From: Patescibacteria group bacterium
GTDB taxonomy: Bacteria; Patescibacteriota; Microgenomatia; UBA1400; MFAQ01
Assembly: GCA_943355005.1 (NCBI GenBank)
Contig: CALRDV010000002.1
Coordinates: 64,397-128,396 of the forward strand
DNA: 64,000 bases
Reading direction: 5' to 3'
Notes under the pieces: generated by a model
The model's database searches: none
What the model saw: only the letters and a program-made list of their open reading frames with translations
What the model was told of the DNA's origin: nothing
Translations under genes and position numbers: made by a program
Shown: positions 9,700-63,809 of the stretch, in pieces
How the letters are laid out: every line of letters begins with the position of its first letter
Numbering within the stretch: position 1 is the first letter of the stretch

Positions 9700-11552
9700 T
9701 ATTCTTCAAATTCTGCCTTTTGTTTTCCAACTAATTCCTCAAACTCTTCCTGTTCCAGGGTTTCTATTTCCACCAATCTGGCGGAAATTATATCAAGCTC
9801 TTTTCTATGTTGTAGAAGTGTCTTTTCTGCCAAAACATAAGCTTCATCAATTAGTCTTTTTATTTCTAAGTCAACTTTTGTTTGCATACCATCGGAGAGT
9901 TTTATGGAATCTCCATAAGAATAACCCCAAGTATTACTTTCCACCATTTGACCCAATGATACCGGGCCCAGATTACTCATACCAAAGTCGACCACCATTC
10001 TTCTGGCTAGCATTGTGGCTCTCTCAATATCACTGGAAGCTCCAGCAGTTAGCTCATCAAAAACAATTCTTTCGGCCGCTCTTCCTCCGAGCATCATAGC
10101 CATTTCATGTTCAAGCTCAGTTTGGGTTTGTTGGAGTTTATCTGTTTTTGGTCTACTCATAGTAAATCCTAACGCCATTCCTCTAGATACAATACTTACC
10201 CGGTGAATAGGATCCGTTCCCGGAAGCAAATGTCCCACCAATGCATGTCCCACCTCGTGGTATGCCGTCATTTTCTTTTCTCTAGCCGACGAAAGCCTCT
10301 TCTTTTCCGGTCCCATCTTAACCTTCATGGCAGCCTCTTCCACATCCGCCATAATAATTTCTTTTCTGTCAGAACGTGCGGCCAGAATTGCGGCTTCGTT
10401 CAGCATATTTTCTATATCGGCTCCCGAAAATCCTACTGTTCTTTCTGCTATCTTATCCCAATTCATCTTTTTTCCAAACGGCTTTCCCACCTTATGTATT
10501 TCAAGGATTGCTTTTCTGCCGGCGATATCAGGTAGATCTAGCGTAACTCTACGATCAAATCTCCCTGGGCGAACCAATGCCGGATCAAGTACGTCAGGTC
10601 TATTGGTTGCCGCTACTACTATTACATTGTCTGTTTGAGTAAACCCGTCCATCTCAACTAATATTTGGTTTAGTGTCTGTTCTCTTTCGTCATGGCCACC
10701 AAAACCCCCACTGGCTCCTCGAGTTCTTCCAATAGCATCAATTTCATCTATAAAAATAATCGAAGGTGAAGCTTTTTTGGCAGTGTCAAACAAATCACGA
10801 ACTCTACTGGCACCTACTCCCACCAGCATCTCCATAAACTCCGACCCTGCCATAGAAAAGAATGGCACACCTGCTTCACCGGCAACCGCTCTTGCCAACA
10901 AAGTTTTTCCTACTCCGGCAGGTCCGGTCAGAAGAACACCTTTAGGAGTTCTCGCTCCCAAATCTCGATATTTTTTAGGGTTCTTTAGAAAATCAACTAC
11001 CTCTTCGAGTTCTTTTTTTGCCTCATCTACCCCGGCAACGTCGGAAAATTTAATATTCTGTTTGCCTTTAGAAAATAGTTTCGCCTTACTCTTTCCAATT
11101 CCAAAAACATCACCACCCCCACCTTGACGCTTCATGATATAGAACATTAGTACTCCAAAACCAATAATCGGAAGAACCAGAGACATCACATTCCACAGCC
11201 CATTTACAAAATCCTGACTAACTACTTCTACTTTTATTTTACTTTCATCCACACCGGCTTTTTGAAGTTGATCCATAAAACTGGAGCTGTCTTCTTTTCT
11301 GGACATCCCCAATACCTGCACCCCGGAAGAATCTTTTGGGTACAAAAGTATTAGCTCTTGTCCTCTAATTTGTACAGATTCAACCTTACCCTCTTTAATC
11401 TCTGCGATTGCGGTAGATAAAGGTAACTCCTTTACTGCACCCGTTGAGCCAAGAATAAACTTAATCAATCCTGGTAAAAAGAGAAAAATTATCAATAACC
11501 AAATAAGGATTCTTCTTAGATTTAAATTAATCTTAAATTCTACTTTTTTCAT
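9699..11552 (-). CDS. ftsH: ATP-dependent zinc metalloprotease FtsH
   Basis: N-terminal TM segments, AAA Walker A GPAGVGKT and Walker [13 protein letters not shown], zinc motif HEVGHAL. Confidence 0.95.
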
Positions 11553-54901: not shown

Positions 54902-55468
54902 TTGTTCATGTCCAAAAAATTTATAAAACAAGCCGGGAACACTCTCATACTTCTAGCGACTTTCGCACTACCGGTAGCTTTACTAATTTTCTTTCGAGAA
55001 GACTTTAAAGAGATTGAGAAAATCATCCCTACCACCGGTGTAGCCGGACCACTTATCTCTATACTTCTCATGGGAGTTCTTTCTGCCACACCAATTCCCA
55101 CCGACCCAATAGTAATTCTCAATGGTGCCGTTTTTGGTCCTTTCGTCGGCGTCCTAGTTTCCTGGATGGGCAACAATTTCGCCGCGATCATTGAGTACTT
55201 TATTGGAAAAGGGATTGCCAAAATTGCCGACTTTGAAAGACAAAGGCACAATCTTCCCTTTGGCCTTGGTAATTTTCCCGTAGATTCTGCATGGTATCTA
55301 ATTTGTGGTCGTTTCGTCCCGCAGTTCGGCGGAAAAGTTGTCTCCATTTCGAGTGGCATGTATCATGTAAATTTTTGGAAATATCTTTGGACGTCTCTCG
55401 TTAGTAACTTATTTGGCTCTGTCGCTCTCGCTGTAGGTGGTTATTCCATACTCCACAAATTCCTCTGA
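54902..55468 (+). CDS. DedA/TVP38/TMEM64-family membrane protein
   Basis: Reentrant hydrophobic topology and the G-rich DedA-like core (PTDPIVILNGAVFGP). Confidence 0.45.
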   Translation: MFMSKKFIKQAGNTLILLATFALPVALLIFFREDFKEIEKIIPTTGVAGPLISILLMGVLSATPIPTDPIVILNGAVFGPFVGVLVSWMGNNFAAIIEYFIGKGIAKIADFERQRHNLPFGLGNFPVDSAWYLICGRFVPQFGGKVVSISSGMYHVNFWKYLWTSLVSNLFGSVALAVGGYSILHKFL

Positions 55469-55475
55469 TAACAAT

Positions 55476-55508
55476 GTCATTCCGGACTTGATCCGGAATC
55501 TATATAAT
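55476..55508. repeat. GTCATTCCGGACTTGATCCGGAATCTATATAAT repeat copy
   Basis: Same head, tail and hairpin architecture as 44462 and 41456, with compensatory stem changes (CCGGA/TCCGG). Confidence 0.8.
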
Positions 55509-55515
55509 TTTTCTC

Positions 55516-56127
55516 CTACAAGTATTTTGCAAACCACGCAATAGTTAATTCAGATATTTTTTCCATCCCCACAGGGACTATTTCCATCTTTTTTACACAT
55601 CCCATCTTTTGATATGCTTGCTTATTGAAATCAATCAGCTGTTTATCCTCTCCCCCAACAATAAAAAGCGAAGGAGCCTCGATTAAATCCAATACCTCCA
55701 TCGCCAAATCCGGCCTACCACCCTTGGAGACCAAAGCCTTAATCTTGGTCCCCCAATATGCAGCTGAAGATAGTGCCGCAGTAGAGCCGATACCGGCGCC
55801 ATAATACCCCAATTTCAAACTCTTTGTCTTGTCATTTTCCAAACACCACTTGCTTACTGCAATCAATCTCTCCGTCATTATCTCAATATTAAATCTGTTT
55901 TCAGACTTTTTAGCTTCCCCTTCGGTTAACAAATCAAACAACAGAGTTCCTACCCCTGCACTCCGAAGGTCTTTTGCCACCCTAAAGGTTTTATCGGACA
56001 ATCTTCCATCCCCCAACTCGTGGGCAAACACCACCATCGACTCTGATTTTCCAGGCAAATCAAGAACCCCTTTGAGAATAATATTCTGAACTGAAATTTC
56101 CACATCCATCTTCCTTAAATATAACAA
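55516..56127 (-). CDS. Alpha/beta hydrolase of the dienelactone-hydrolase-like family
   Basis: Nucleophile elbow GxGxG region (GYYGAGIGS) and DLH-like size. Confidence 0.45.
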   Translation of the reverse strand: MLYLRKMDVEISVQNIILKGVLDLPGKSESMVVFAHELGDGRLSDKTFRVAKDLRSAGVGTLLFDLLTEGEAKKSENRFNIEIMTERLIAVSKWCLENDKTKSLKLGYYGAGIGSTAALSSAAYWGTKIKALVSKGGRPDLAMEVLDLIEAPSLFIVGGEDKQLIDFNKQAYQKMGCVKKMEIVPVGMEKISELTIAWFAKYL

Positions 56128-56215
56128 ATCTTACATCCCAAACTCAATAGCCAGATTATTCCCAAAAAAAATGCCCCAATAAAAATTGGGGCAAATACCA
56201 TAAACATTAACTGAG

Positions 56216-57019
56216 CTACACTGAGAATCCACCAACCTGGGCTTGAGAAAAACCGGGAGCACCCTGAGAAGCTGTCGTGGCGACAGTCGAGAAAGTTCCA
56301 AAGCCGCGCCGGATATCAGTCCCGGAAGCATCGGTCTTGAGAATGCACTGTTCGAGAACTCCCATCCGCAAGAAAATATCGCGGAAGTCGGTTCCCAGGT
56401 CATCCTGAATACCCATGGCGCAGACAATATGCTGCTCGCCGGAAAGAAAATCTTTCGTCAATGGAGCCACTGACTCAGGAGTCATATAGAGAGAACTTCC
56501 CTCGTCATGACCATCACAAACCAGTAATGTTGCTGAACGGACCGGAGTACCACGATCGGAGAATTCCTGAGTCTTTTTTACCAGGTCACCATAACTGATG
56601 ACGGTGGTATCGTAGAAAGGAGTTCCACCATTCGCTCGGTAATTTGTCGAATCCAGTAGTGGCACGTCGTCAATCGGAGTGAAGGGAATCACCACCCCGG
56701 CATTCAAAAAGCGCACGCACATCAGAATTGACTTGTGGTTTTTTGCACCCTTCAAATCAGCACGGACCTTGTTCACACCATCACGGATCGCTTGCTCGTT
56801 CCCCGCACGTCGGATCGAAGTTGAATCATCAACCACGATTTCAACTGCGAAGATTTCCGAACCGCCTTTTACGTCAATCGCGGGCACACCCATCGCCTGA
56901 TTTATCTGAGCAGATACATCAGGGATCGTGAAAGCTTTATGGCTGGCAGCAGAGATTACTCCCTCTGCCCGAGCATTATCAAACAGATCATTCGAATTTG
57001 CAGCACTTGAATTTGTCAT
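56216..57019 (-). CDS. von Willebrand factor A (vWA) domain protein, TerY-like
   Basis: MIDAS residues: DDSTS (DxSxS), GGTP threonine, and an LVCDGHDEG aspartate. Notably GC-richer than its surroundings. Confidence 0.65.
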   Translation of the reverse strand: MTNSSAANSNDLFDNARAEGVISAASHKAFTIPDVSAQINQAMGVPAIDVKGGSEIFAVEIVVDDSTSIRRAGNEQAIRDGVNKVRADLKGAKNHKSILMCVRFLNAGVVIPFTPIDDVPLLDSTNYRANGGTPFYDTTVISYGDLVKKTQEFSDRGTPVRSATLLVCDGHDEGSSLYMTPESVAPLTKDFLSGEQHIVCAMGIQDDLGTDFRDIFLRMGVLEQCILKTDASGTDIRRGFGTFSTVATTASQGAPGFSQAQVGGFSV

Positions 57020-57063
57020 CGGAATCTCCTTATTTTTTGTCTTTTAGATCAACACTCGAAAAA

Positions 57064-58083
57064 TTAGATCGGGTCAGTCGAGCGAACGATATTCATACCT
57101 TCCTTAGCAAACTTGGCAAAAACTTCGTTCGTTTTGTCTGTATGATCCACAATTCCAGGAACCACCACAGGACTCATACAATCTTCCAACAGATACACTT
57201 TCTTTGCCATCGCAGGGTCGACCGCCTTGATTTCTTCCAGAAGGTCAGCGATTGTCCATGCCACACAGTGACTCTTCGCCTGTCCCGCAATATACAGCTT
57301 GTCTACCGACATCAACGCCTTAATGAATCTTGTGCTTTTTTGAGCAATCGGTTGCCCCATGGCAAACAAGATCTCTGGGCGCAAAGCCGAATAGCTTTCA
57401 TCCAGTGGATTTCCACCTTTTGTCTCTGGCTCAATATCGGTCTCACGAGCAATGCTATGAAAGAAAATTGCTTCATGGAAGGATGCAACCAGCGCATGTC
57501 CAATACCACCAAGCATTGCGTGGTAGGGCCAGACAGTCAAGCGGAATTTATTGGCTCTCTCCAGCTGAGTACAGTAGTCAAGTAAATATGACTGAAGCCA
57601 ATTATAGTCAACTCCAGGCACACGACCAACGACCGCCAAATTGACCATCCATTTCCCGGTACGAATATCATTAGAACTGATTTCAGTATACGGAGCAGGG
57701 TGCTTACCATTTTTGTCAACGAAAAACACCGGGTGAAAAATTTGTTGAGCAGTATGAGTATCCATCGTCGCAAAGATGCGATTTATCTTACGCAGATTGC
57801 GATAAATGAATTCTGTTAAACGCCGGGTATCGTCGATCGCGCCCGTTCCACTGCGTCCACCAACATAGAGCTCGAATTCAGGAATACAGAAAGTATTCTG
57901 AACATCGATTCCCATTAACCCAATCTTTACAGAATCTGTCGATGCGGGCTTAATGTCATACTGTTTTGCATACTTCTCAGCCGACACTTCCAATTCGGCA
58001 TACTTCGGTTCCCAAACTTGTCCAACTTTTCTTGCATCATAATGTGTAGGAATAGGCAGATTAGTCATTCTTTTCTCCTTCAT
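57064..58083 (-). CDS. Isochorismatase-family cysteine hydrolase with N-terminal extension
   Basis: GIDVQNTFC (catalytic Asp), ATMDTHT, and the catalytic Cys in YIAGQAKSHCVAWTIADL. Confidence 0.6.
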   Translation of the reverse strand: MKEKRMTNLPIPTHYDARKVGQVWEPKYAELEVSAEKYAKQYDIKPASTDSVKIGLMGIDVQNTFCIPEFELYVGGRSGTGAIDDTRRLTEFIYRNLRKINRIFATMDTHTAQQIFHPVFFVDKNGKHPAPYTEISSNDIRTGKWMVNLAVVGRVPGVDYNWLQSYLLDYCTQLERANKFRLTVWPYHAMLGGIGHALVASFHEAIFFHSIARETDIEPETKGGNPLDESYSALRPEILFAMGQPIAQKSTRFIKALMSVDKLYIAGQAKSHCVAWTIADLLEEIKAVDPAMAKKVYLLEDCMSPVVVPGIVDHTDKTNEVFAKFAKEGMNIVRSTDPI

Positions 58084-58086
58084 TTT

Positions 58087-59958
58087 CTAACGGATTGTCA
58101 AACTCAGTACTTCTTTCTTGCGAATTACATAGATCCCTTTAGAACTTGGCAACAAGAACGAATTCTCGTCGACATATGGTTCTGTATCGGGAAATTCCTT
58201 TGTCTGAACAATTCTGCCGTTTACGATTTCGGCACGAACTATCCCGTCATTGGTAGCATTCAAGATAAAGTCACCTATTGGCAGCTTACCTCGAATTTTT
58301 CCTAACCAGGAACCATCCCCATTTTCACACTCCTCAGTGGCCTCAATTTCCCCCAGTGAGTTAATCACCTGAACTCTGTTGATGATCTTGGAGCCACTCT
58401 TTTCCGTAGTCATAAACCATGCATGAGTACCGGCGAACACACAAGTCGAATCGATCAATTGTCCTTTAACGGGAACAATCTTTACAGAATCGTTAATACC
58501 GGACCTATTAGCGTCAAACACAAAAGCGCGAGTCAAATTATCAGCCCGGTAAAAACCAAAGCCAAATTTTTCACCCACCCAAAAAAGCGTCTGACCTTCA
58601 AGAACACTTCCGATGATCTCGGGACCTAAAGATTCATCACGATAGAGAAAACCACCGCTAGACCAGTAGTAATGTTTAGAATTAGCGTCGATGGTCGGTA
58701 AGTTCCCAAAGGAATCCACCGCAATCTTCTCAGCCGCTTTTCCGTTTTCCAAGACTACCATCAGTCCATTTTTAGCCACTATCGTCTTGTTTGCCTGTAT
58801 CCGATACCTCATACCCACATCCAAGCCACCTTCCAAACTTACTGCTCCATCTTCACGAAGAAACCGACCATTTTCGTTATAGAGGTATTTCAACTCTCCT
58901 TTTTGCACTGTTGCGTATACTATCAAACCTCCTGTTTGAAAAGCAAAATCTACCCGGACGTTTCCTCTGATCTGGGTTACCTTCTGAGCTGCCACTCCGG
59001 CAGAACAATTAGGGCAGATACTTCGAGCATGCTCATAACCACAGTTCAGACATTTTCCAAACCTAATCTGCAAAAGCTTTGTCGGGAACTCTCCTCTTTC
59101 TCCTTTTTCAAAGGTTTTAAAAAAGAAATCCAATAAATCATCCGGCAGAATATGCATTGGGGTCGCCGGTTTTGGATAAACCACTTCAGGGTTAAAAATA
59201 CTTATTCCCCGGAGAGGTCTTGCATCCAGTGTCACCAAGTTTTTTCTATCTTTCGGCTTATAAACTCCTCCCCACGGACGCACATACAATAGTGCTTCCA
59301 TGAGCATAACGACATAGGCGTACCAATCAGACAAGTCATCGTGAGGCTTGATCATCTTCAGAGACTTCTGTTTAGGATCACAATGCTTCGGATCTACATA
59401 AGCAGCCGTAAACATTGGACTCAAATATTTACTATTCCCCATACTGTCAGCATCACACAATTTTGCCTTTGCTTGCTTGATTAACACATTAAGACTATTA
59501 AAATCAGAAATTACTACTCCGGCTTCATGGGTCTGTTTCACCGTGGGGTGTAGATCGGCAAAGATCTGCATCATCACATTGTTTCCAATACCACCGACTT
59601 CACGAAAGTCCCTATCAAGATACTGCATCAAAGTTTCATAACCTTTCAAGTACTCCATTTCATAACCCAATATTTTTCTCCCGGACAAGTCCGTAAGAAG
59701 ATCTAGGGGCACCACCACACTTGATGGCAACATGGCAAAAGGAAACTCTCGAAGTTTCGTTTGATGCATAATAATTCTTTTTTCTGCTTCTTTTTGTTGA
59801 TCCGGAAACATATCAAAATCAGGATCGTTTCTTTCCTTAAAGATTTTCCCTACCCTGGAAGGGCTAGTTTCGTAAATATATGCTTCCCCGCCTTTCCCTC
59901 TCAACTTACTGGGATCCAAGGGAACTCTTTCTCCATTTCTATAAGCAACTCTATGCAT
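58087..59958 (-). CDS. Protein-kinase-like (Ser/Thr kinase fold) protein with internal zinc ribbon and C-terminal beta-rich domain
   Basis: Gly-rich loop GKGGEAYIYE and VGKIFK lysine; catalytic-loop-like VISDFNSLNVLI (D...N); DADSMG (DFG-like); CLNCGYEHARSICPNC ribbon. Confidence 0.5.
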   Translation of the reverse strand: MHRVAYRNGERVPLDPSKLRGKGGEAYIYETSPSRVGKIFKERNDPDFDMFPDQQKEAEKRIIMHQTKLREFPFAMLPSSVVVPLDLLTDLSGRKILGYEMEYLKGYETLMQYLDRDFREVGGIGNNVMMQIFADLHPTVKQTHEAGVVISDFNSLNVLIKQAKAKLCDADSMGNSKYLSPMFTAAYVDPKHCDPKQKSLKMIKPHDDLSDWYAYVVMLMEALLYVRPWGGVYKPKDRKNLVTLDARPLRGISIFNPEVVYPKPATPMHILPDDLLDFFFKTFEKGERGEFPTKLLQIRFGKCLNCGYEHARSICPNCSAGVAAQKVTQIRGNVRVDFAFQTGGLIVYATVQKGELKYLYNENGRFLREDGAVSLEGGLDVGMRYRIQANKTIVAKNGLMVVLENGKAAEKIAVDSFGNLPTIDANSKHYYWSSGGFLYRDESLGPEIIGSVLEGQTLFWVGEKFGFGFYRADNLTRAFVFDANRSGINDSVKIVPVKGQLIDSTCVFAGTHAWFMTTEKSGSKIINRVQVINSLGEIEATEECENGDGSWLGKIRGKLPIGDFILNATNDGIVRAEIVNGRIVQTKEFPDTEPYVDENSFLLPSSKGIYVIRKKEVLSLTIR

Positions 59959-59970
59959 GGGGTCTCCTTT

Positions 59971-60840
59971 CTACAATCTACTAACGACCACCACAGCTAA
60001 ATCGTCCTTTAGAATCGCCGGTTGTGTTTCCATTTCGGACACAGCCCAATCAATTCTCTTTTTTTCGGTAGCTAACAAGTTTAGTCTCCACCCTAATGCT
60101 TCAGTGTTTTCAAAATACTCCTTGTTACTCCAAAAATCTTCAGGGCCACCCACGGGATTTCTTGTTCCGGGAACGATTTTTGTCGGATCTTTAAGAAACC
60201 ATTCAATCCCATCAGTAGCGATCATCGCTGATTGCACTGTTTTTGTGGAGACCGCATGCCGAACCCTCAGTCTCAAATCTTCTGTGGTCAATCTTTTCGA
60301 GGTCGTTCCAACCAAATTATACGCAAGACAAGGGGGCATATTATCAACATCTTTGGCAAACATTTCGTACATTTGACCATTTAAGAAATAATTTCCATCT
60401 CCTGTGCCGAAAAACAAAGTGATTTCGGGAGTTACTACCATTCCCACAATAGTAAACAAAAAATGTTTAATTATGGCTCTGGAATAACTTCCCCCCATTG
60501 CGTGTGAAGTAGACTCAATTAGGTTTAGAGTGTGCTTTTGAGTTTCCTCCCACAACTCTCTCCCCCTTAACATCGAATTCCACTTCCACTTTGGCGCACT
60601 TTCCAGACGGCCGGCAATATAGTTTGCAATGGCTGTAACACCAATTGTTGACCCAACTTCAGCGTGAAGAGAATCAATCGGGTCTCCCATTCCATCTCCT
60701 ACAACAGCGACCAATAAATCTTGTTTCTCAACCACAAGAAGTGCGTCTTGACAGTTTTTTTTGATCCTTACATGATCGGCGCCAATTACAATTCCCGAAG
60801 AAACTTTGATCTGATTCACAAAAACCTCCTTAACTCTCAA
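59971..60840 (-). CDS. PP2C-family Ser/Thr protein phosphatase
   Basis: VAVVGDGMGD (DGMGG-like metal-binding motif) plus other PP2C acidic residues. Confidence 0.65.
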   Translation of the reverse strand: MRVKEVFVNQIKVSSGIVIGADHVRIKKNCQDALLVVEKQDLLVAVVGDGMGDPIDSLHAEVGSTIGVTAIANYIAGRLESAPKWKWNSMLRGRELWEETQKHTLNLIESTSHAMGGSYSRAIIKHFLFTIVGMVVTPEITLFFGTGDGNYFLNGQMYEMFAKDVDNMPPCLAYNLVGTTSKRLTTEDLRLRVRHAVSTKTVQSAMIATDGIEWFLKDPTKIVPGTRNPVGGPEDFWSNKEYFENTEALGWRLNLLATEKKRIDWAVSEMETQPAILKDDLAVVVVSRL

Positions 60841-60907
60841 TTTTGTAGTTCAATTTTCAAGGAACCAAATACTTAGTGTATTTATGACACCATTATATAC
60901 CAAATCT

Positions 60908-60926
60908 TAGTGTTGTCAATACACTA
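60908..60926. promoter_or_regulatory. Operator-like palindrome TAGTGTT-GTCAA-TACACTA overlapping a TTGTCA(-35)-N17-TAAATA promoter upstream of 61075
   Basis: Inverted repeat seen directly. A weaker copy lies at 60866-60884 and a perfect copy at 61962-61980. Confidence 0.45.
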
Positions 60927-61074
60927 TTTTGAACCTAAATAAGGTTCATGCGCTCTATTATATAGACATTTCCCTCAAAATTACCCACTCGTAGGTAATT
61001 CGTACAGCAAGAACTTTTATAGGATATTTTTGCACCATTTTGACTTACCTGAACAAAACTTATAAAATACCCTC

Positions 61075-61635
61075 ATGAACAAAACGTCCCTGTTGATTAA
61101 ACCTACCATCCTTTCCATCACCTTTCTCCTTCTCACTTCCCCGGTATTTGCGGCCAATACAGACATTAAAGGCAAAAACCTTAAAAGTCTTCCGAAAATG
61201 GAAATCTCTGCCGTAAAAAATAAAATTTGCAAATCAAAAGAAGAAGATACCAAAACTCGCATGACTCAGCTTACGAAACTGGTAGCCTCCATGGAAACGG
61301 TTTTTGATCGAATCGCTGAAGGTGTCAAAAAATACTACACAGACAAGGTTCTTACTTCGGGGAAAACTGTGACTAACTACGACAAACTTGTCAAGGATAT
61401 TGCCGACAAAAAAGCACTTATTCAAACACAGCTTGACAAGGCAAAGTCAGATATCGGCAATTTAAATTGTGAGGATGGCACAGCTAAGAATACTACTGCT
61501 CAATTTCACACCAATATGAAAGCCGTCAAAGAAGGTCTAAAAAACTACAGAAAATCTGTCAATACTCTCATCGTCGCAGTCCACACTGTTGATAAAAACA
61601 TCAAAGTGTCACCCACCATTACTCCGGCCAATTAA
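61075..61635 (+). CDS. Secreted coiled-coil protein (hypothetical)
   Basis: Signal peptide (LLTSPVFAANT); K/E-rich helical repeats. Confidence 0.5.
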   Translation: MNKTSLLIKPTILSITFLLLTSPVFAANTDIKGKNLKSLPKMEISAVKNKICKSKEEDTKTRMTQLTKLVASMETVFDRIAEGVKKYYTDKVLTSGKTVTNYDKLVKDIADKKALIQTQLDKAKSDIGNLNCEDGTAKNTTAQFHTNMKAVKEGLKNYRKSVNTLIVAVHTVDKNIKVSPTITPAN

Positions 61636-61650
61636 TATCACTCAAAGTCC

Positions 61651-61905
61651 ATGCCCAAAACAAACCAAAATAGCAATAAAGAAACCAAATTATTTTTACT
61701 AATTGTCCTTCTAGTCCTGGTAGGCTACCTTTTTACTTCTAAGAAAAGTGAAACTGCCAAAACAACAGCACCCGCTCCACTATCTGCCGAAAACATTACC
61801 GACACCTCAAGTCTTGAAAACGCTCAAGACAAGCTTAACTCTGTCAACATCGATTCTTTAGACCTAGAACTAAACAAACTAAACTCAGACTCTTCTGCTT
61901 TTTAG
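61651..61905 (+). CDS. Small single-TM protein (hypothetical)
   Basis: 84 aa with an N-terminal TM helix (LFLLIVLLVLVGYLF). Confidence 0.4.
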   Translation: MPKTNQNSNKETKLFLLIVLLVLVGYLFTSKKSETAKTTAPAPLSAENITDTSSLENAQDKLNSVNIDSLDLELNKLNSDSSAF

Positions 61906-61961
61906 GTCGACTCTCAAAGCTTCCTCACCTGCACGAACTTCCTCTTGCGCTTGACAATACT

Positions 61962-61980
61962 TAGTGTAAGCTATACACTA
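61962..61980. promoter_or_regulatory. Operator-like perfect palindrome TAGTGTA-AGCTA-TACACTA within a TTGACA-N17-TACACT promoter upstream of 62009
   Basis: Perfect 7-bp inverted-repeat arms; the same half-sites occur at 60908. Confidence 0.5.
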
Positions 61981-62008
61981 CATTATGATAGTGTAATTAA
62001 TACACAAT

Positions 62009-62929
62009 ATGACAAAACCACTTAAAGCTGTTTACTGTTACTACTTTCCTGAAGTCAGAAAAATAATTGATGAAGCTACCTCCTCTTATCCTCACGAAAT
62101 TTTTCTCAAATCCGTCAATCCCGGTCTCGACGATTTTCACCATAAAGCTCTAGACGCCTACATCAAACACTTTAAATATGAACTTCCAGATCTTAATTCC
62201 TTCCCCTTCAAATATGTTTCAGGTGGAGCTAGTGAGAGTATCTTTCACCTCCTTTCTTATATCAAAGCAAACAGACCGGATACCCCACTTTATGTCCTAA
62301 AAGGTGAATACGAAGGTTATGCCGGCTATGGTTCGAACTTAGGCCTTAGATTTACCATAGTGAATGATCTGTTGGATTTACTCACCCTCCCCAAAGGCAT
62401 TCTCTTTCTATCAAACCCTTCAGCGCGGGACGGCAATATCATTCCCGACTCAGAAATTCTAAAAGTTGCTGATTCGGGCCAGCAAATAATTTACGATGCA
62501 ACTTATGTTGGCCTTACAGATCCTCACCGATTCGAGCTAGGTCACCCAAATATAATCGCCGTAATTGTTTCGCTTAGTAAACCTTTCGGTCTCTACTACT
62601 ATCGCATTGGCTTTACCTTTAGCAGGTTCGAGATAAAAACTCTTGAAGTTAACAAGTGGTTTAAAAATATCTTATCTCTCATCATCGCCGAAAAAGTATT
62701 AAACCAAATTGATTCAAAAAAACTTGTCAACCAGTACCGGGTTCTTCAAAAGAAAGCCGTCTCTCAAATGAATTCTGATTTAGGACTTGATGCCAAGCCA
62801 AGCCAAGTGGTTTTACTTGCTCATTCCAATCAAGAGTCAAACCCCTCAATGGAAATTTACAACCGAGGCAGCAACTATCGATTTTGCCTTACACCATATT
62901 ATTTAATCAAAGAAAGGGGTTATATCTAA
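62009..62929 (+). CDS. PLP-dependent aminotransferase-fold enzyme (class I/II, HisC/CobD-like), short form
   Basis: FLSNPSARDGNI matches the NPxNPTG substrate motif. SLSKPFGLYYYRIGF matches the SxSKxxGxxGxRxG PLP-lysine motif. Confidence 0.5.
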   Translation: MTKPLKAVYCYYFPEVRKIIDEATSSYPHEIFLKSVNPGLDDFHHKALDAYIKHFKYELPDLNSFPFKYVSGGASESIFHLLSYIKANRPDTPLYVLKGEYEGYAGYGSNLGLRFTIVNDLLDLLTLPKGILFLSNPSARDGNIIPDSEILKVADSGQQIIYDATYVGLTDPHRFELGHPNIIAVIVSLSKPFGLYYYRIGFTFSRFEIKTLEVNKWFKNILSLIIAEKVLNQIDSKKLVNQYRVLQKKAVSQMNSDLGLDAKPSQVVLLAHSNQESNPSMEIYNRGSNYRFCLTPYYLIKERGYI

Positions 62930-62930
62930 G

Positions 62931-63809
62931 ATGAGACAAGCTGAAAACTTTAGTATTATTGCCGGAACCGGGGCCTGCAATGCTTCTTGCCCATTCTGTG
63001 TTTCCAAAATGACAGGTATTAAGGCTCTTGGTTTACACCCCCAGCCGATAAATTGGCGCAACTTTGAAAAAGCAGCCCGGCTTGCCAAAGATTACTTTGT
63101 GGGCAGTGTCATGATTACCGGCAAAGGTGAACCCACTCTCTTCCCCGACCAAATCACTTCTTATCTTGAGCATTTGGAACCTTACAAGTTTCCCTTAATA
63201 GATTTACAAACCAATGGAATCAACTTAATCAGCCAAAAAAACCGTTACGAATCCTACCTAAAAAAGTGGTACGACCTTGGTCTTTCCTGGATTGCGATTT
63301 CTATTATTCATTATATTCCGGAGGAAAATCACAAAGTTTACAACCCATATGCCAAAGAGTATATCGATCTTCCCAAACTGGTAAAACACCTAAAAAGCTT
63401 TGGTTATTCTGTCCGATTCAGTGTCACTATGCACAAGGGCGCTATCGATACTCCTAGAAAAGTTTTGAAAATAATCGAATTTGCTAAATCTCTGGGGGTT
63501 GAACAGCTCACGCTCAGAAAAATTGCTAAGCCAACCGTGAGCGAAAACGACGATATTGGAAAATGGACCAAAAAACATTTTTTGTCTGAAACGAAACTAT
63601 ATTTAATCAAAGCATTTATAGAAAAAATAGGTCACAGACTTCTTACCACGGGCCACAATGCGGGTATCTACGATGTGAATGGTCAGAACGTCTGTCTTAC
63701 AAACGCCCTCACCATCGATGCCGACCCATCTCAAATTCGTCAACTCATTTTCTTTCCTGATGGTCGGATTAAATTTGACTGGCAATACTCTGGAGCCACT
63801 TTACTTTGA
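62931..63809 (+). CDS. Radical SAM enzyme (no SPASM/twitch domain)
   Basis: CNASCPFC (Cx3Cx2C) near the N-terminus and the GKGEPTL glycine-rich SAM motif. Translationally coupled to the PLP enzyme (stop and start 1 nt apart). Confidence 0.7.
   Translation: MRQAENFSIIAGTGACNASCPFCVSKMTGIKALGLHPQPINWRNFEKAARLAKDYFVGSVMITGKGEPTLFPDQITSYLEHLEPYKFPLIDLQTNGINLISQKNRYESYLKKWYDLGLSWIAISIIHYIPEENHKVYNPYAKEYIDLPKLVKHLKSFGYSVRFSVTMHKGAIDTPRKVLKIIEFAKSLGVEQLTLRKIAKPTVSENDDIGKWTKKHFLSETKLYLIKAFIEKIGHRLLTTGHNAGIYDVNGQNVCLTNALTIDADPSQIRQLIFFPDGRIKFDWQYSGATLL

Follow-up and report, generated by a model that had tools for sequence, protein, structure and literature searches.

The TerY-P triad comprises a TerY-like vWA protein, a PP2C phosphatase and a Ser/Thr kinase with a C-terminal zinc ribbon (Anantharaman et al. 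2012 and Gao et al. 2020, via PMC11090510), and is found in the context of tellurite resistance, restriction or CoCoNuT systems. In the available part of PMC11090510, the role of this widespread triad is only hypothesized or predicted. NrtR-regulated salvage operons, such as nrtR-pncA-pncB, encode a PncA-type enzyme and carry a 21-bp palindromic operator with a GT-N7-AC core over the promoter, and ADP-ribose is the effector of NrtR (Rodionov et al. 2008, PMC2330246). ARG-centred systems, which are Nudix- or WYL-regulated, are predicted to counter viral ADP-ribosylation (Iyer et al. 2022, PMC9503650). Phages in turn can reconstitute NAD+ through the pathways NARP1, NARP2 and NARP3, by ADP-ribose recycling, Nampt and Nmnat, or PnuC and NadR (PMC13464706).

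Here we describe a four-gene cassette in a 64-kb stretch of DNA (the window), in which a TerY-P-like triad is joined by a nicotinamidase-like hydrolase. That the cassette belongs to NAD metabolism is a new point of this analysis. With somewhat better than even confidence, we read it as an ADP-ribose-inducible nicotinamide-salvage operon of the NrtR regulon, gated by a TerY-P-like phospho-switch.

The cassette shares with TerY-P the three protein types, the fusion of kinase and zinc ribbon, an intact MIDAS, a PP2C predicted to be active and tight operon linkage. It differs in having the nicotinamidase as a fixed fourth gene between the kinase and vWA genes, in a kinase that adds a 7-bladed propeller after the zinc ribbon, in a context of NrtR and NAD salvage, and in a vWA protein that is unrecognized as a member of the TerY subfamily (PADLOC at E ≤ 0.1, and Pfam). 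Like the NrtR-regulated operons, it combines a 21-bp GT-N7-AC operator over the promoter with a PncA-type enzyme, and its neighbours are often nrtR, pncB and nadD, with nadE in two IMG/VR loci. However, its PncA is a divergent form of 335–350 aa with a large insertion and scores below curated cut-offs, and kinase, PP2C and vWA genes are not among the operon and regulon structures of Table 1 of PMC2330246, as far as the available part of that paper extends. The ARG-centred systems have in common with the cassette an NrtR-like Nudix regulator, phosphatases, a vWA ‘chaperone’ and a stable core to which variable genes are added, and some cassette loci also encode an ADP-ribosylglycohydrolase. By contrast, the glycohydrolase is central to the ARG-centred systems and optional in the cassette (17 of 80 loci), their phosphatases are of the rhodanese, calcineurin or HD type, and nicotinamidase, Hanks kinase and PP2C are not described for them in the accessible part of PMC9503650. 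Finally, as in the NARP pathways, large IMG/VR contigs (candidate phages) pair the cassette with NAD synthase, pncB and an NMNAT-like gene, whereas the pathways described in the portion of PMC13464706 consulted do not include a PncA/PncB (Preiss–Handler) route under a kinase/PP2C/vWA switch. Our literature searches on TerY-P, nicotinamidase and NrtR returned no description of the cassette; the original TerY-P paper (PMC4104200) may mention it.

Operon layout and NrtR-type operators

The four genes occupy positions 56216–60840 of the window, all on the minus strand, and are transcribed in the order PP2C, kinase, nicotinamidase-like hydrolase and vWA (Table 1). The intergenic gaps of 12, 3 and 44 nt agree with the preliminary description, which had noted four co-directional minus-strand genes separated by 3–44 nt. 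The genes are predicted to form a discrete operon bounded by a sigma-70 promoter and an intrinsic terminator. The perfect promoter match is unique within 55300–62100, and the terminator lies 23 nt 3′ of the vWA stop codon. A dienelactone-hydrolase-like gene located downstream (55516–56127) was ruled out as an operon member, because the terminator intervenes and the gene does not cluster with ORFs of other loci. At the upstream end, the true PP2C start is probably the GTG at 60819, with AGGAGG ahead of it at 60825–60830.

Table 1 Features of the cassette and their positions in the window
Feature	Position	Strand	Details
NrtR-type operator 1	60907..60927	-	21-bp palindrome ATAGTGTATTGACAACACTAA; core GT-N7-AC; overlaps -35 hexamer
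Sigma-70 promoter	60892..60919	-	TTGACA-16 nt-TATAAT; 12/12 consensus positions
NrtR-type operator 2	60874..60892	-	1 mismatch; abuts -10 hexamer, spans likely transcription start
PP2C-family Ser/Thr phosphatase	59971..60840	-	289 aa as maximal ORF; Pfam PP2C_2 E=1.8e-14
Hanks-type Ser/Thr protein kinase domain, kinase residues 1-300	59059..59958	-	GKGGEA loop, K38/K41, D152, N157, D169
Zinc ribbon, kinase residues 303-318	59005..59052	-	C303, C306, C315, C318 invariant
7-bladed beta-propeller, kinase residues 328-623	58087..58977	-	~29 strands; stop codon after
Long-form nicotinamidase-like isochorismatase-fold hydrolase	57064..58083	-	339 aa; catalytic D60, K222, C273; metal D108, H110, H188
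Cytoplasmic vWA protein	56216..57019	-	267 aa; MIDAS D64, S66, S68, T133, D169 intact
Intrinsic terminator	56162..56193	-	9-bp stem, 5 G-C pairs, then T8

Operator 1 is an exact match to TAGTGT-N7-ACACTA, and the operator motif agrees with the NrtR palindrome published in PMC2330246, in the part of it that was available. The window contains four NrtR-box matches, against 0.10 expected by chance, and two of the four lie on the operon promoter. In related loci, the 400 nt preceding the PP2C gene contain a box in 54 of 75 cases, whereas none of the 75 control windows has one. Of the 100 boxes found in 1.08 Mb, 80 fall within this distance upstream of a PP2C gene. Moreover, 44 of 80 related loci have nrtR itself directly upstream of the cassette, two representatives being confirmed by Pfam. 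Together, boxes and neighbours suggest that NrtR, and through it ADP-ribose, would control the operon. In the source organism NrtR control is predicted from the operators; nrtR is absent from the 64-kb window, as are pncB, nadD-nadK and ARH.

The four proteins

The preliminary description had assigned the products as a PP2C phosphatase, a kinase with a zinc ribbon, an isochorismatase-family hydrolase and a vWA protein. All four assignments hold, on the basis of profiles, invariant residues and, for the vWA protein, an AF2 model. The PP2C looks active, as judged from its invariant catalytic Asp residues; the invariant positions comprise D32, D49-G50, D148, D210-G211 and D279-D280.

The kinase domain has the features of the kinase fold (a Gly-rich loop, the β3 Lys, the catalytic Asp and Asn and a DFG-type Asp), and its catalytic residues are invariant among homologues. 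Its motifs are atypical, with GDFNDLN in place of HRDLKPEN and DAD (DADS) in place of DFG, and its score is slightly under the Pfam kinase cut-off. The zinc ribbon follows directly C-terminal to the kinase domain, as in the TerY-P kinase. The C-terminal β-propeller had been overlooked in the preliminary description.

Nicotinamidase converts nicotinamide to nicotinate, the entry step of Preiss–Handler NAD+ salvage. The third protein of the cassette appears to be a divergent, long-form PncA-like Cys hydrolase of nicotinamidase-like type. PncA is its sole PDB match: in the alignment, the segments with the catalytic Asp and Cys correspond to D8 and C138 of Mycobacterium tuberculosis PncA, and WPyH corresponds to WPPH (H71). 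The catalytic Lys was placed by a KG-x6-YS motif in the sequence, its segment being out of register in hhalign. The catalytic and metal-binding residues are invariant in 26 hydrolase sequences; the motifs WPxH, DxH and SHC do not vary either. The earlier suggestion of an effector that acts on an amide-containing nucleotide or cofactor thus came close, in that the PncA motifs and alignment make the hydrolase nicotinamidase-like. We infer nicotinamidase activity from these sequence features, although the substrate could differ from free nicotinamide, because the protein misses the curated cut-offs (Pfam Isochorismatase, 13.3 bits versus 27; NCBIfam PRK11609, 20.7 versus 174) and carries an insertion of ~65 residues. 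A weak match to glutarate 2-hydroxylase (E ~0.01–0.02) is local to the insertion region; we took it for a chance similarity and set it aside.

The vWA protein consists of an N-terminal helical region, the vWA domain and a C-terminal Ser-rich tail that ends in GGF and is conserved yet predicted to be disordered. Its MIDAS residues are invariant. Single-sequence and family-profile HMM searches of PDB sequences and Pfam found no significant vWA domain; among 27 homologues, one reaches the Pfam vWA family (E = 0.045), and the window protein has no Pfam vWA match. In the AF2 model, the top 50 PDB matches are all vWA or I domains, and it is this predicted structure alone that resolves the vWA assignment.

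Conservation, gene neighbourhood and the defence question

The PP2C–kinase–hydrolase–vWA arrangement recurs, in the same order and on the same strand, in 72 of 80 loci, which span Patescibacteria, Cyanobacteria, Planctomycetota, Acidobacteriota and others. In IMG/VR contigs, too, the hydrolase gene is found between those for the kinase and the vWA protein. This co-localization across phyla upholds the earlier view of a Cys hydrolase embedded in a TerY-P-like triad, and the refutation foreseen for it, that homologues would never be co-localized, fails decisively because the order is so conserved. The same result corrects the idea of an inserted element, since the hydrolase is a fixed member.

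The hydrolase family is linked in genomes to pncB, nadD, nadE or NrtR. It is also common without the triad in many genomes, which argues that the triad is dispensable for catalysis; the window protein is 57–60% identical to stand-alone homologues, and in Anaerolineales the family occurs in an nrtR-ISO-pncB operon with its own NrtR box. This identity and this operon prompted us to consider a housekeeping pncA accidentally inserted in the triad, an idea dropped in view of the conserved gene order. Another explanation is that the operon is shared for regulatory convenience only and the triad is an independent signalling module unrelated to the nicotinamidase. The frequency of the enzyme without the triad is compatible with this, as is the occurrence of the kinase alone, without partners, in a few genomes (L064 and L083), but in distant phyla and IMG/VR contigs alike, the hydrolase gene is invariably flanked by those of the kinase and the vWA protein. 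Since this placement persists across such distances, functional coupling is to be expected, and we consider mere convenience highly improbable.

Recurrent neighbours of the cassette are pncB, an NMNAT–NAD kinase fusion and ADP-ribosylglycohydrolase, with representatives of each confirmed by Pfam. The NAD context as a whole (NrtR operators, nrtR, pncB, NMNAT–NAD kinase, nadE and ADP-ribosylglycohydrolase) had been missed in the earlier reading. A neighbourhood that is entirely NAD metabolism also lends some support to a reading in which the kinase-like and PP2C-like proteins are small-molecule enzymes of the pyridine-nucleotide cycle rather than protein-signalling components, the one phosphorylating, for example, a riboside or ADP-ribose derivative and the other dephosphorylating a nucleotide. 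The atypical kinase motifs and the missed Pfam kinase cut-off point the same way; we nevertheless regard this reading as very unlikely.

The preliminary description took the triad for a mobile stress or conflict module. This view is not borne out: the PADLOC screen gave no clear match, searches of plasmids and GenBank phages with the kinase turned up no orthologs, and in the kinase tree the Cyanobacteria form one clade with largely vertical descent. At E ≤ 0.1, PADLOC returned zero matches for the PP2C, the hydrolase and the vWA protein, whereas the kinase gave weak matches of the kinase-domain type (PD-T4-6, Stk2, mad6 and MkoA; best E = 0.0011). No core protein clearly matched a known defence family, and none matched TerY-P, which we assume the library to cover. 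Membership of any catalogued defence system was ruled out on this outcome.

A TerY-P-type anti-phage or conflict system, with the nicotinamidase as effector and the triad as sensor and switch, is unlikely in our estimation. In such a system, ADP-ribose from NAD+ cleavage during infection would induce the operon, and nicotinamide would be destroyed, denying the phage Nampt-type reconstitution or locking in NAD+ depletion. TerY-P-like triads have been reported as stand-alone defence systems (Gao 2020, via the available part of PMC11090510), ADP-ribose is predicted to induce the cassette, and the combination of a constant core with changing accessory genes is a hallmark of the ARG-centred systems in the accessible part of PMC9503650. 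Some loci contain in-cassette inserts of conflict type, namely a SIR2 gene (PADLOC PDC-S65, E = 7e-216), a PD-(D/E)xK gene (PD_DExK, E = 1e-47), a weakly Macro/DarG-like ORF (E ~2e-5 to 6e-5) and an ADP-ribosylglycohydrolase gene. The distribution is patchy, with kinase relatives in 370 of 185,579 species genomes, and GC content is elevated in the ISO and vWA genes. Against an anti-phage role stand not only the PADLOC outcome and the single cyanobacterial clade, but also the strong cross-phylum conservation (43–51% identity for the kinase and up to 60% for the hydrolase), in contrast to fast-evolving defence genes. Furthermore, in small Patescibacteria genomes the cassette adjoins pncB, nadD and nadE, and it is absent from plasmids and is also found on phage-like contigs.

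Proposed mechanism and candidate phage-borne cassettes

In the salvage reading that we favour, we infer every step of the phospho-switch. Consumption of NAD+ by ADP-ribosylation, sirtuins or NADases would yield free ADP-ribose, which would release NrtR from the two operators straddling the promoter, so that the operon is transcribed. The nicotinamidase would clear the nicotinamide by-product and supply PncB, NadD and NadE for resynthesis; the genes of these enzymes are often neighbours of the cassette. The kinase and PP2C would reversibly phosphorylate a partner, most likely the Ser-rich vWA tail or the nicotinamidase itself, and binding or release of a target at the vWA MIDAS would follow, so that salvage flux would track a signal read by the propeller. 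The SIR2, PD-(D/E)xK and weakly Macro-like inserts of some loci run counter to this best reading, hinting at a conflict role.

In the cassette, the triad is tied to an enzyme whose biochemical role can be read and to a regulator whose ligand is known, and this opens the triad to concrete assays. The cassette has been retained by genome-reduced Patescibacteria and by many Cyanobacteria, cultured Pseudanabaena and Leptolyngbya among them, and apparently also by huge phages; it is therefore probably the answer to a general problem of NAD+ homeostasis. If phosphorylation gates salvage, a post-translational layer would be added to bacterial NAD+ control, hitherto described mainly as transcriptional, and the cassette would bear on present work on how NAD+ is depleted and reconstituted during phage–host conflict.

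Huge phages apparently carry the cassette as well, as judged from the gene content of phage-like contigs. The kinase is found on 16 large IMG/VR contigs, with at least two partner genes on 13 of them; the GenBank-phage search yielded only kinase-domain matches of 22–25%, in two huge uncultured phages. A more speculative and distinctly unlikely reading is that the cassette serves both sides in a front-line NAD+ conflict. On the cellular side, ADP-ribose from infection-triggered NAD+ cleavage or viral ADP-ribosylation might induce a phospho-gated nicotinamidase, and nicotinamide might thereby be withheld from phage Nampt-type reconstitution and channelled to the host Preiss–Handler route. On the side of huge phages, the cassette might combine with pncB, nadD and nadE into a fourth, kinase-controlled pathway of NAD+ reconstitution. 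If this reading were true, it would provide the first known case of Ser/Thr phosphorylation directly controlling bacterial NAD+ salvage. On the phage-like IMG/VR contigs, the cassette and its NAD synthase, pncB and NMNAT-like neighbours lie beside phage-type replication genes.

Operon architecture and protein folds

The four minus-strand open reading frames lie exactly where the preliminary description had placed them, separated by gaps of 12, 3 and 44 nt. Scanning for consensus elements revealed one perfect sigma-70 promoter (TTGACA-16-TATAAT, 60919 to 60892) 5′ of the PP2C gene, and a strong hairpin with a T8 tail (56193-56172) 23 nt past the vWA stop codon; the cassette thus forms a self-contained transcription unit. 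The PP2C protein probably starts at GTG 60819, behind AGGAGG (60825-60830), in preference to TTG 60840. A gene for a dienelactone-hydrolase-like alpha/beta hydrolase (203 aa, 55516-56127, minus strand) is located directly downstream, outside the cassette and beyond the terminator; the closest relatives (loci L006 and L008) have ORFs of similar size and position after the cassette, which do not cluster with this gene. The G+C contents of the hydrolase (0.449) and vWA (0.499; GC3 0.478) genes exceed those of 27 other window genes (0.401 +/- 0.021, maximum 0.433), and could reflect either past transfer or constraint from highly conserved proteins. The plus-strand GC skew is strongly negative (-0.13 to -0.40) in each 2-kb bin of window 1-64000 and the minus strand holds most of the long ORFs, so that the window looks like one replichore arm with a strong strand bias.

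Features of the cassette, its operators and related loci
Feature	Location	Strand	Basis or remark
PP2C gene	59971-60840	-	ORF, 289 aa
Kinase gene	58087-59958	-	ORF, 623 aa
Hydrolase gene	57064-58083	-	ORF, 339 aa
vWA gene	56216-57019	-	ORF, 267 aa
NrtR-type box	60908-60926		motif match; overlaps -35 hexamer
NrtR-type box	60874-60892		motif match; abuts -10 hexamer, covers likely transcription start
Aminotransferase class I/II-like gene	62009-62929	+	weak CobD/HisC similarity
Radical SAM gene	62931-63809	+	weak MoaA/viperin-like similarity
Cassette inserts in other loci	L085:8927-10693; L079:8877-9473, 10810-11322; L094:8888-9433; L053:8997-9743

The phosphatase is the sole cassette protein above a curated HMM cut-off (PP2C_2, E=1.8e-14), in agreement with its original assignment, and its metal-binding residues (D32, D49-G50, D148, D210-G211 and D279-D280) are invariant among 27 homologs. 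The vWA protein had no match in any HMM search run. The top 50 PDB matches of its AF2 model (pLDDT 79.5, pTM 0.82) are vWA/integrin I domains without exception (best E=4e-6), among them SpaC, the alpha-M I domain, C2a and RPN10, and all of 27 vWA sequences keep the MIDAS residues (D64-x-S66-x-S68, T133 and D169) unchanged; the predicted fold and these residues uphold the earlier proposal of a vWA protein with an intact MIDAS. Its conserved C-terminal tail is Ser-rich (consensus FSQSAVRASQ...FSQ...GGFG) and predicted to be disordered. Two vWA homologs (L009:4042-4920 and L033:4202-5077) have an insertion of ~30-45 residues inside the vWA domain, with a CxxC...CPxCG zinc-ribbon motif.

The hydrolase (ISO) falls below the Pfam Isochorismatase (13.3 vs 27 bits) and NCBIfam PncA (20.7 vs 174) cut-offs. 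A profile of 26 family members matches just one PDB sequence, Mycobacterium tuberculosis PncA (E=0.0056), through the active-site segments IVDVQNDFC, WPPHC and ATDHCV, all three in collinear order, and hhalign pairs the two with 91% probability (E=1e-6). D60, K222, C273, D108, H110 and H188 are invariant across the family and, as read from the alignment, constitute the predicted nicotinamidase catalytic triad and an Asp/His/His metal site, of which the WPxH signature is part. The isochorismatase-family assignment is backed by the active-site residues and the PncA profile match, but not by the curated Pfam and NCBIfam models. At 335-350 aa, with some 65 inserted residues, its members are a long form, and the family extends far beyond the cassette (>8000 matches), occurring also without the triad of PP2C, kinase and vWA, as in an nrtR-ISO-pncB operon of an Anaerolineales genome. 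In two loci (L015:8905-10647 and L035:8910-10724), a ~230-aa domain without a match in Pfam, NCBIfam or PADLOC is fused to the N terminus of the nicotinamidase-like protein; in two others (L028:11854-12621 and L038:11732-12421) it is free-standing, downstream of the cassette.

Conservation and distribution of the cassette

A scan of 185,579 species genomes found the kinase family in 370, and a set of 1.84 billion representative proteins contained 792 matches at E<=1e-30. A tblastn search with the four window proteins found all four genes, with order and strand preserved, in 72/80 fetched loci and across phyla; the hydrolase, which the preliminary description had seen as inserted into a triad, is thus a fixed cassette member. 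This interleaved order makes mere co-transcription of the four genes very improbable. Among the eight exceptional loci, four are contigs that break off within the cassette, two (L018 and L039) are short contigs carrying the kinase only, and L064 (Prochloron) and L083 (Spirulina) encode the kinase-propeller protein alone, with no PP2C, hydrolase or vWA gene nearby. L064, L083 and L018 (4.2 kb, with ~2 kb downstream of the kinase lacking the hydrolase) are the only apparent exceptions unexplained by a contig ending inside the cassette.

The loci come from many Patescibacteria lineages, Cyanobacteria (including a complete Pseudanabaena minima genome), Planctomycetota, Acidobacteriota, Gemmatimonadota, Polyangia, Desulfococcaceae and Entotheonellaceae. 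With close relatives of the window left out, identities to the window proteins are 42-51% (kinase), 36-60% (hydrolase), 33-46% (vWA) and 24-35% (PP2C). The neighbour-joining tree of the kinase groups the Cyanobacteria in a single clade and shows the Patescibacteria as a star-like set enclosing a few other phyla, indicating mostly vertical inheritance with some transfer. L006, L007 and other 'MAG TPA_asm' records are titled 'uncultured Pseudomonadales' or 'Gammaproteobacteria', and their cassettes and flanking synteny resemble the Collierbacteria-like window and Patescibacteria loci; the kinase of the 'Rhizobium sp. Q54' MAG (L085) is nested within Cyanobacteria. The taxonomic labels of all these records look unreliable.

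NAD context and NrtR-type operators

Clustering of all ORFs from the 80 loci, with representatives checked by Pfam, revealed nrtR (NUDIX and NrtR_WHD, E=1e-26 to 4e-30) directly 5′ of the PP2C gene in 44/80 loci, an ADP-ribosylglycohydrolase in 17/80, frequently located between PP2C and kinase, nicotinate phosphoribosyltransferase PncB in 12/80, and a nucleotidyltransferase-NAD kinase fusion in 11/80. This NAD context is absent from the preliminary description, and no nrtR, pncB or nadD lies within the 64-kb window. NrtR binds a 21-bp palindromic operator with a GT-N7-AC core, and ADP-ribose relieves this binding (PMC2330246). The motif TAGTGT-N7-ACACTA occurs within 400 nt 5′ of the PP2C gene in 54/75 loci, as compared with 0/75 control windows, and 80 of the 100 boxes in 1.08 Mb of loci occupy this position; the stand-alone nrtR-ISO-pncB operon likewise carries a box. 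The window contains four matches (0.10 expected), two of which lie on the cassette promoter in what, from motif positions, is a classical repressor layout. The second pair (61962-61980, exact, and 61989-62007, one mismatch) is directly 5′ of a plus-strand two-gene unit (62009-63809), whose aminotransferase-like and radical SAM genes may be unrecognised NrtR regulon members in this organism.

Proposed function and relation to known systems

Our data directly support a discrete operon encoding four folds with intact active sites, a gene order fixed across phyla, a promoter bearing NrtR-type operators, and a neighbourhood of NAD-salvage and ADP-ribose genes. Overall, we consider it reasonably probable that the cassette serves nicotinamide salvage under NrtR control and includes a TerY-P-like switch, and hold any particular wiring of the switch with much less confidence. 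PncA catalyses the first step of Preiss-Handler salvage. NAD+ consumption would yield ADP-ribose and nicotinamide; ADP-ribose would derepress the operon, as expected from NrtR, and the nicotinamidase, acting like PncA, would convert nicotinamide to nicotinate, feeding resynthesis. Within the switch, the Ser-rich vWA tail or the hydrolase is probably the target whose phosphorylation the kinase and PP2C control, the MIDAS might then bind or release a partner, and the propeller could be a sensor or docking module. That the kinase and phosphatase are instead small-molecule enzymes is improbable, given the protein-kinase fold and the vWA partner.

By its published definition, TerY-P combines a TerY-like vWA protein with a PP2C and with a Ser/Thr kinase that carries a zinc ribbon at its C terminus (PMC11090510). 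The triad matches this definition, but the cassette differs in its fixed fourth gene, the added propeller of its kinase, the absence of a TerY-P match in PADLOC and its NAD-metabolic context. It also resembles NrtR-regulated pncA-pncB operons, whereas the operon and regulon structures in Table 1 of that study include no kinase, PP2C or vWA genes (PMC2330246). ARG-centred Nudix/WYL-regulated systems similarly include vWA 'chaperones', but lack a nicotinamidase, Hanks kinase and PP2C (PMC9503650). We found no description of the cassette in the literature searched; the original TerY-P paper, beyond that search, may mention it.

Some cassettes contain additional genes. The L085 insert encodes a SIR2 protein (588 aa) with a full-length match to the PADLOC candidate PDC-S65 (E=7e-216), and that of L079 a PD-(D/E)xK protein (E=1e-47), whose L057 counterpart reads as near-identical; others encode an OGFr_N protein, a sugar transferase or a weakly Macro/DarG-like ORF (E about 2e-5 to 6e-5). 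Although the conflict-type inserts and the predicted inducibility by ADP-ribose would suit a defence system of the TerY-P type whose effector is the nicotinamidase, we regard this as unlikely: the core proteins have no clear PADLOC matches, their sequences are strongly conserved, descent in Cyanobacteria is largely vertical, and the cassette occurs in minimal genomes beside pncB and nadD.

No kinase orthologs were found in GenBank phages or PLSDB plasmids. The family is encoded on 16 IMG/VR contigs (42-545 kb) classed as viral: ten show all four genes and three show three; a further contig combines a truncated kinase with PP2C and vWA genes, and in two distant contigs (kinase identity 23-25%) only the kinase and hydrolase are seen. 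The order is vWA-PP2C-kinase-hydrolase in two (L090 and L097), and NrtR boxes are missing from 14/16. The flanks checked in several contigs encode Prim-Pol, PIF1 helicase, T4-type RNA ligase and HNH endonuclease, together with NAD synthase, PncB and an NMNAT-like protein, and these copies may represent a phage-borne Preiss-Handler NAD+ pathway.
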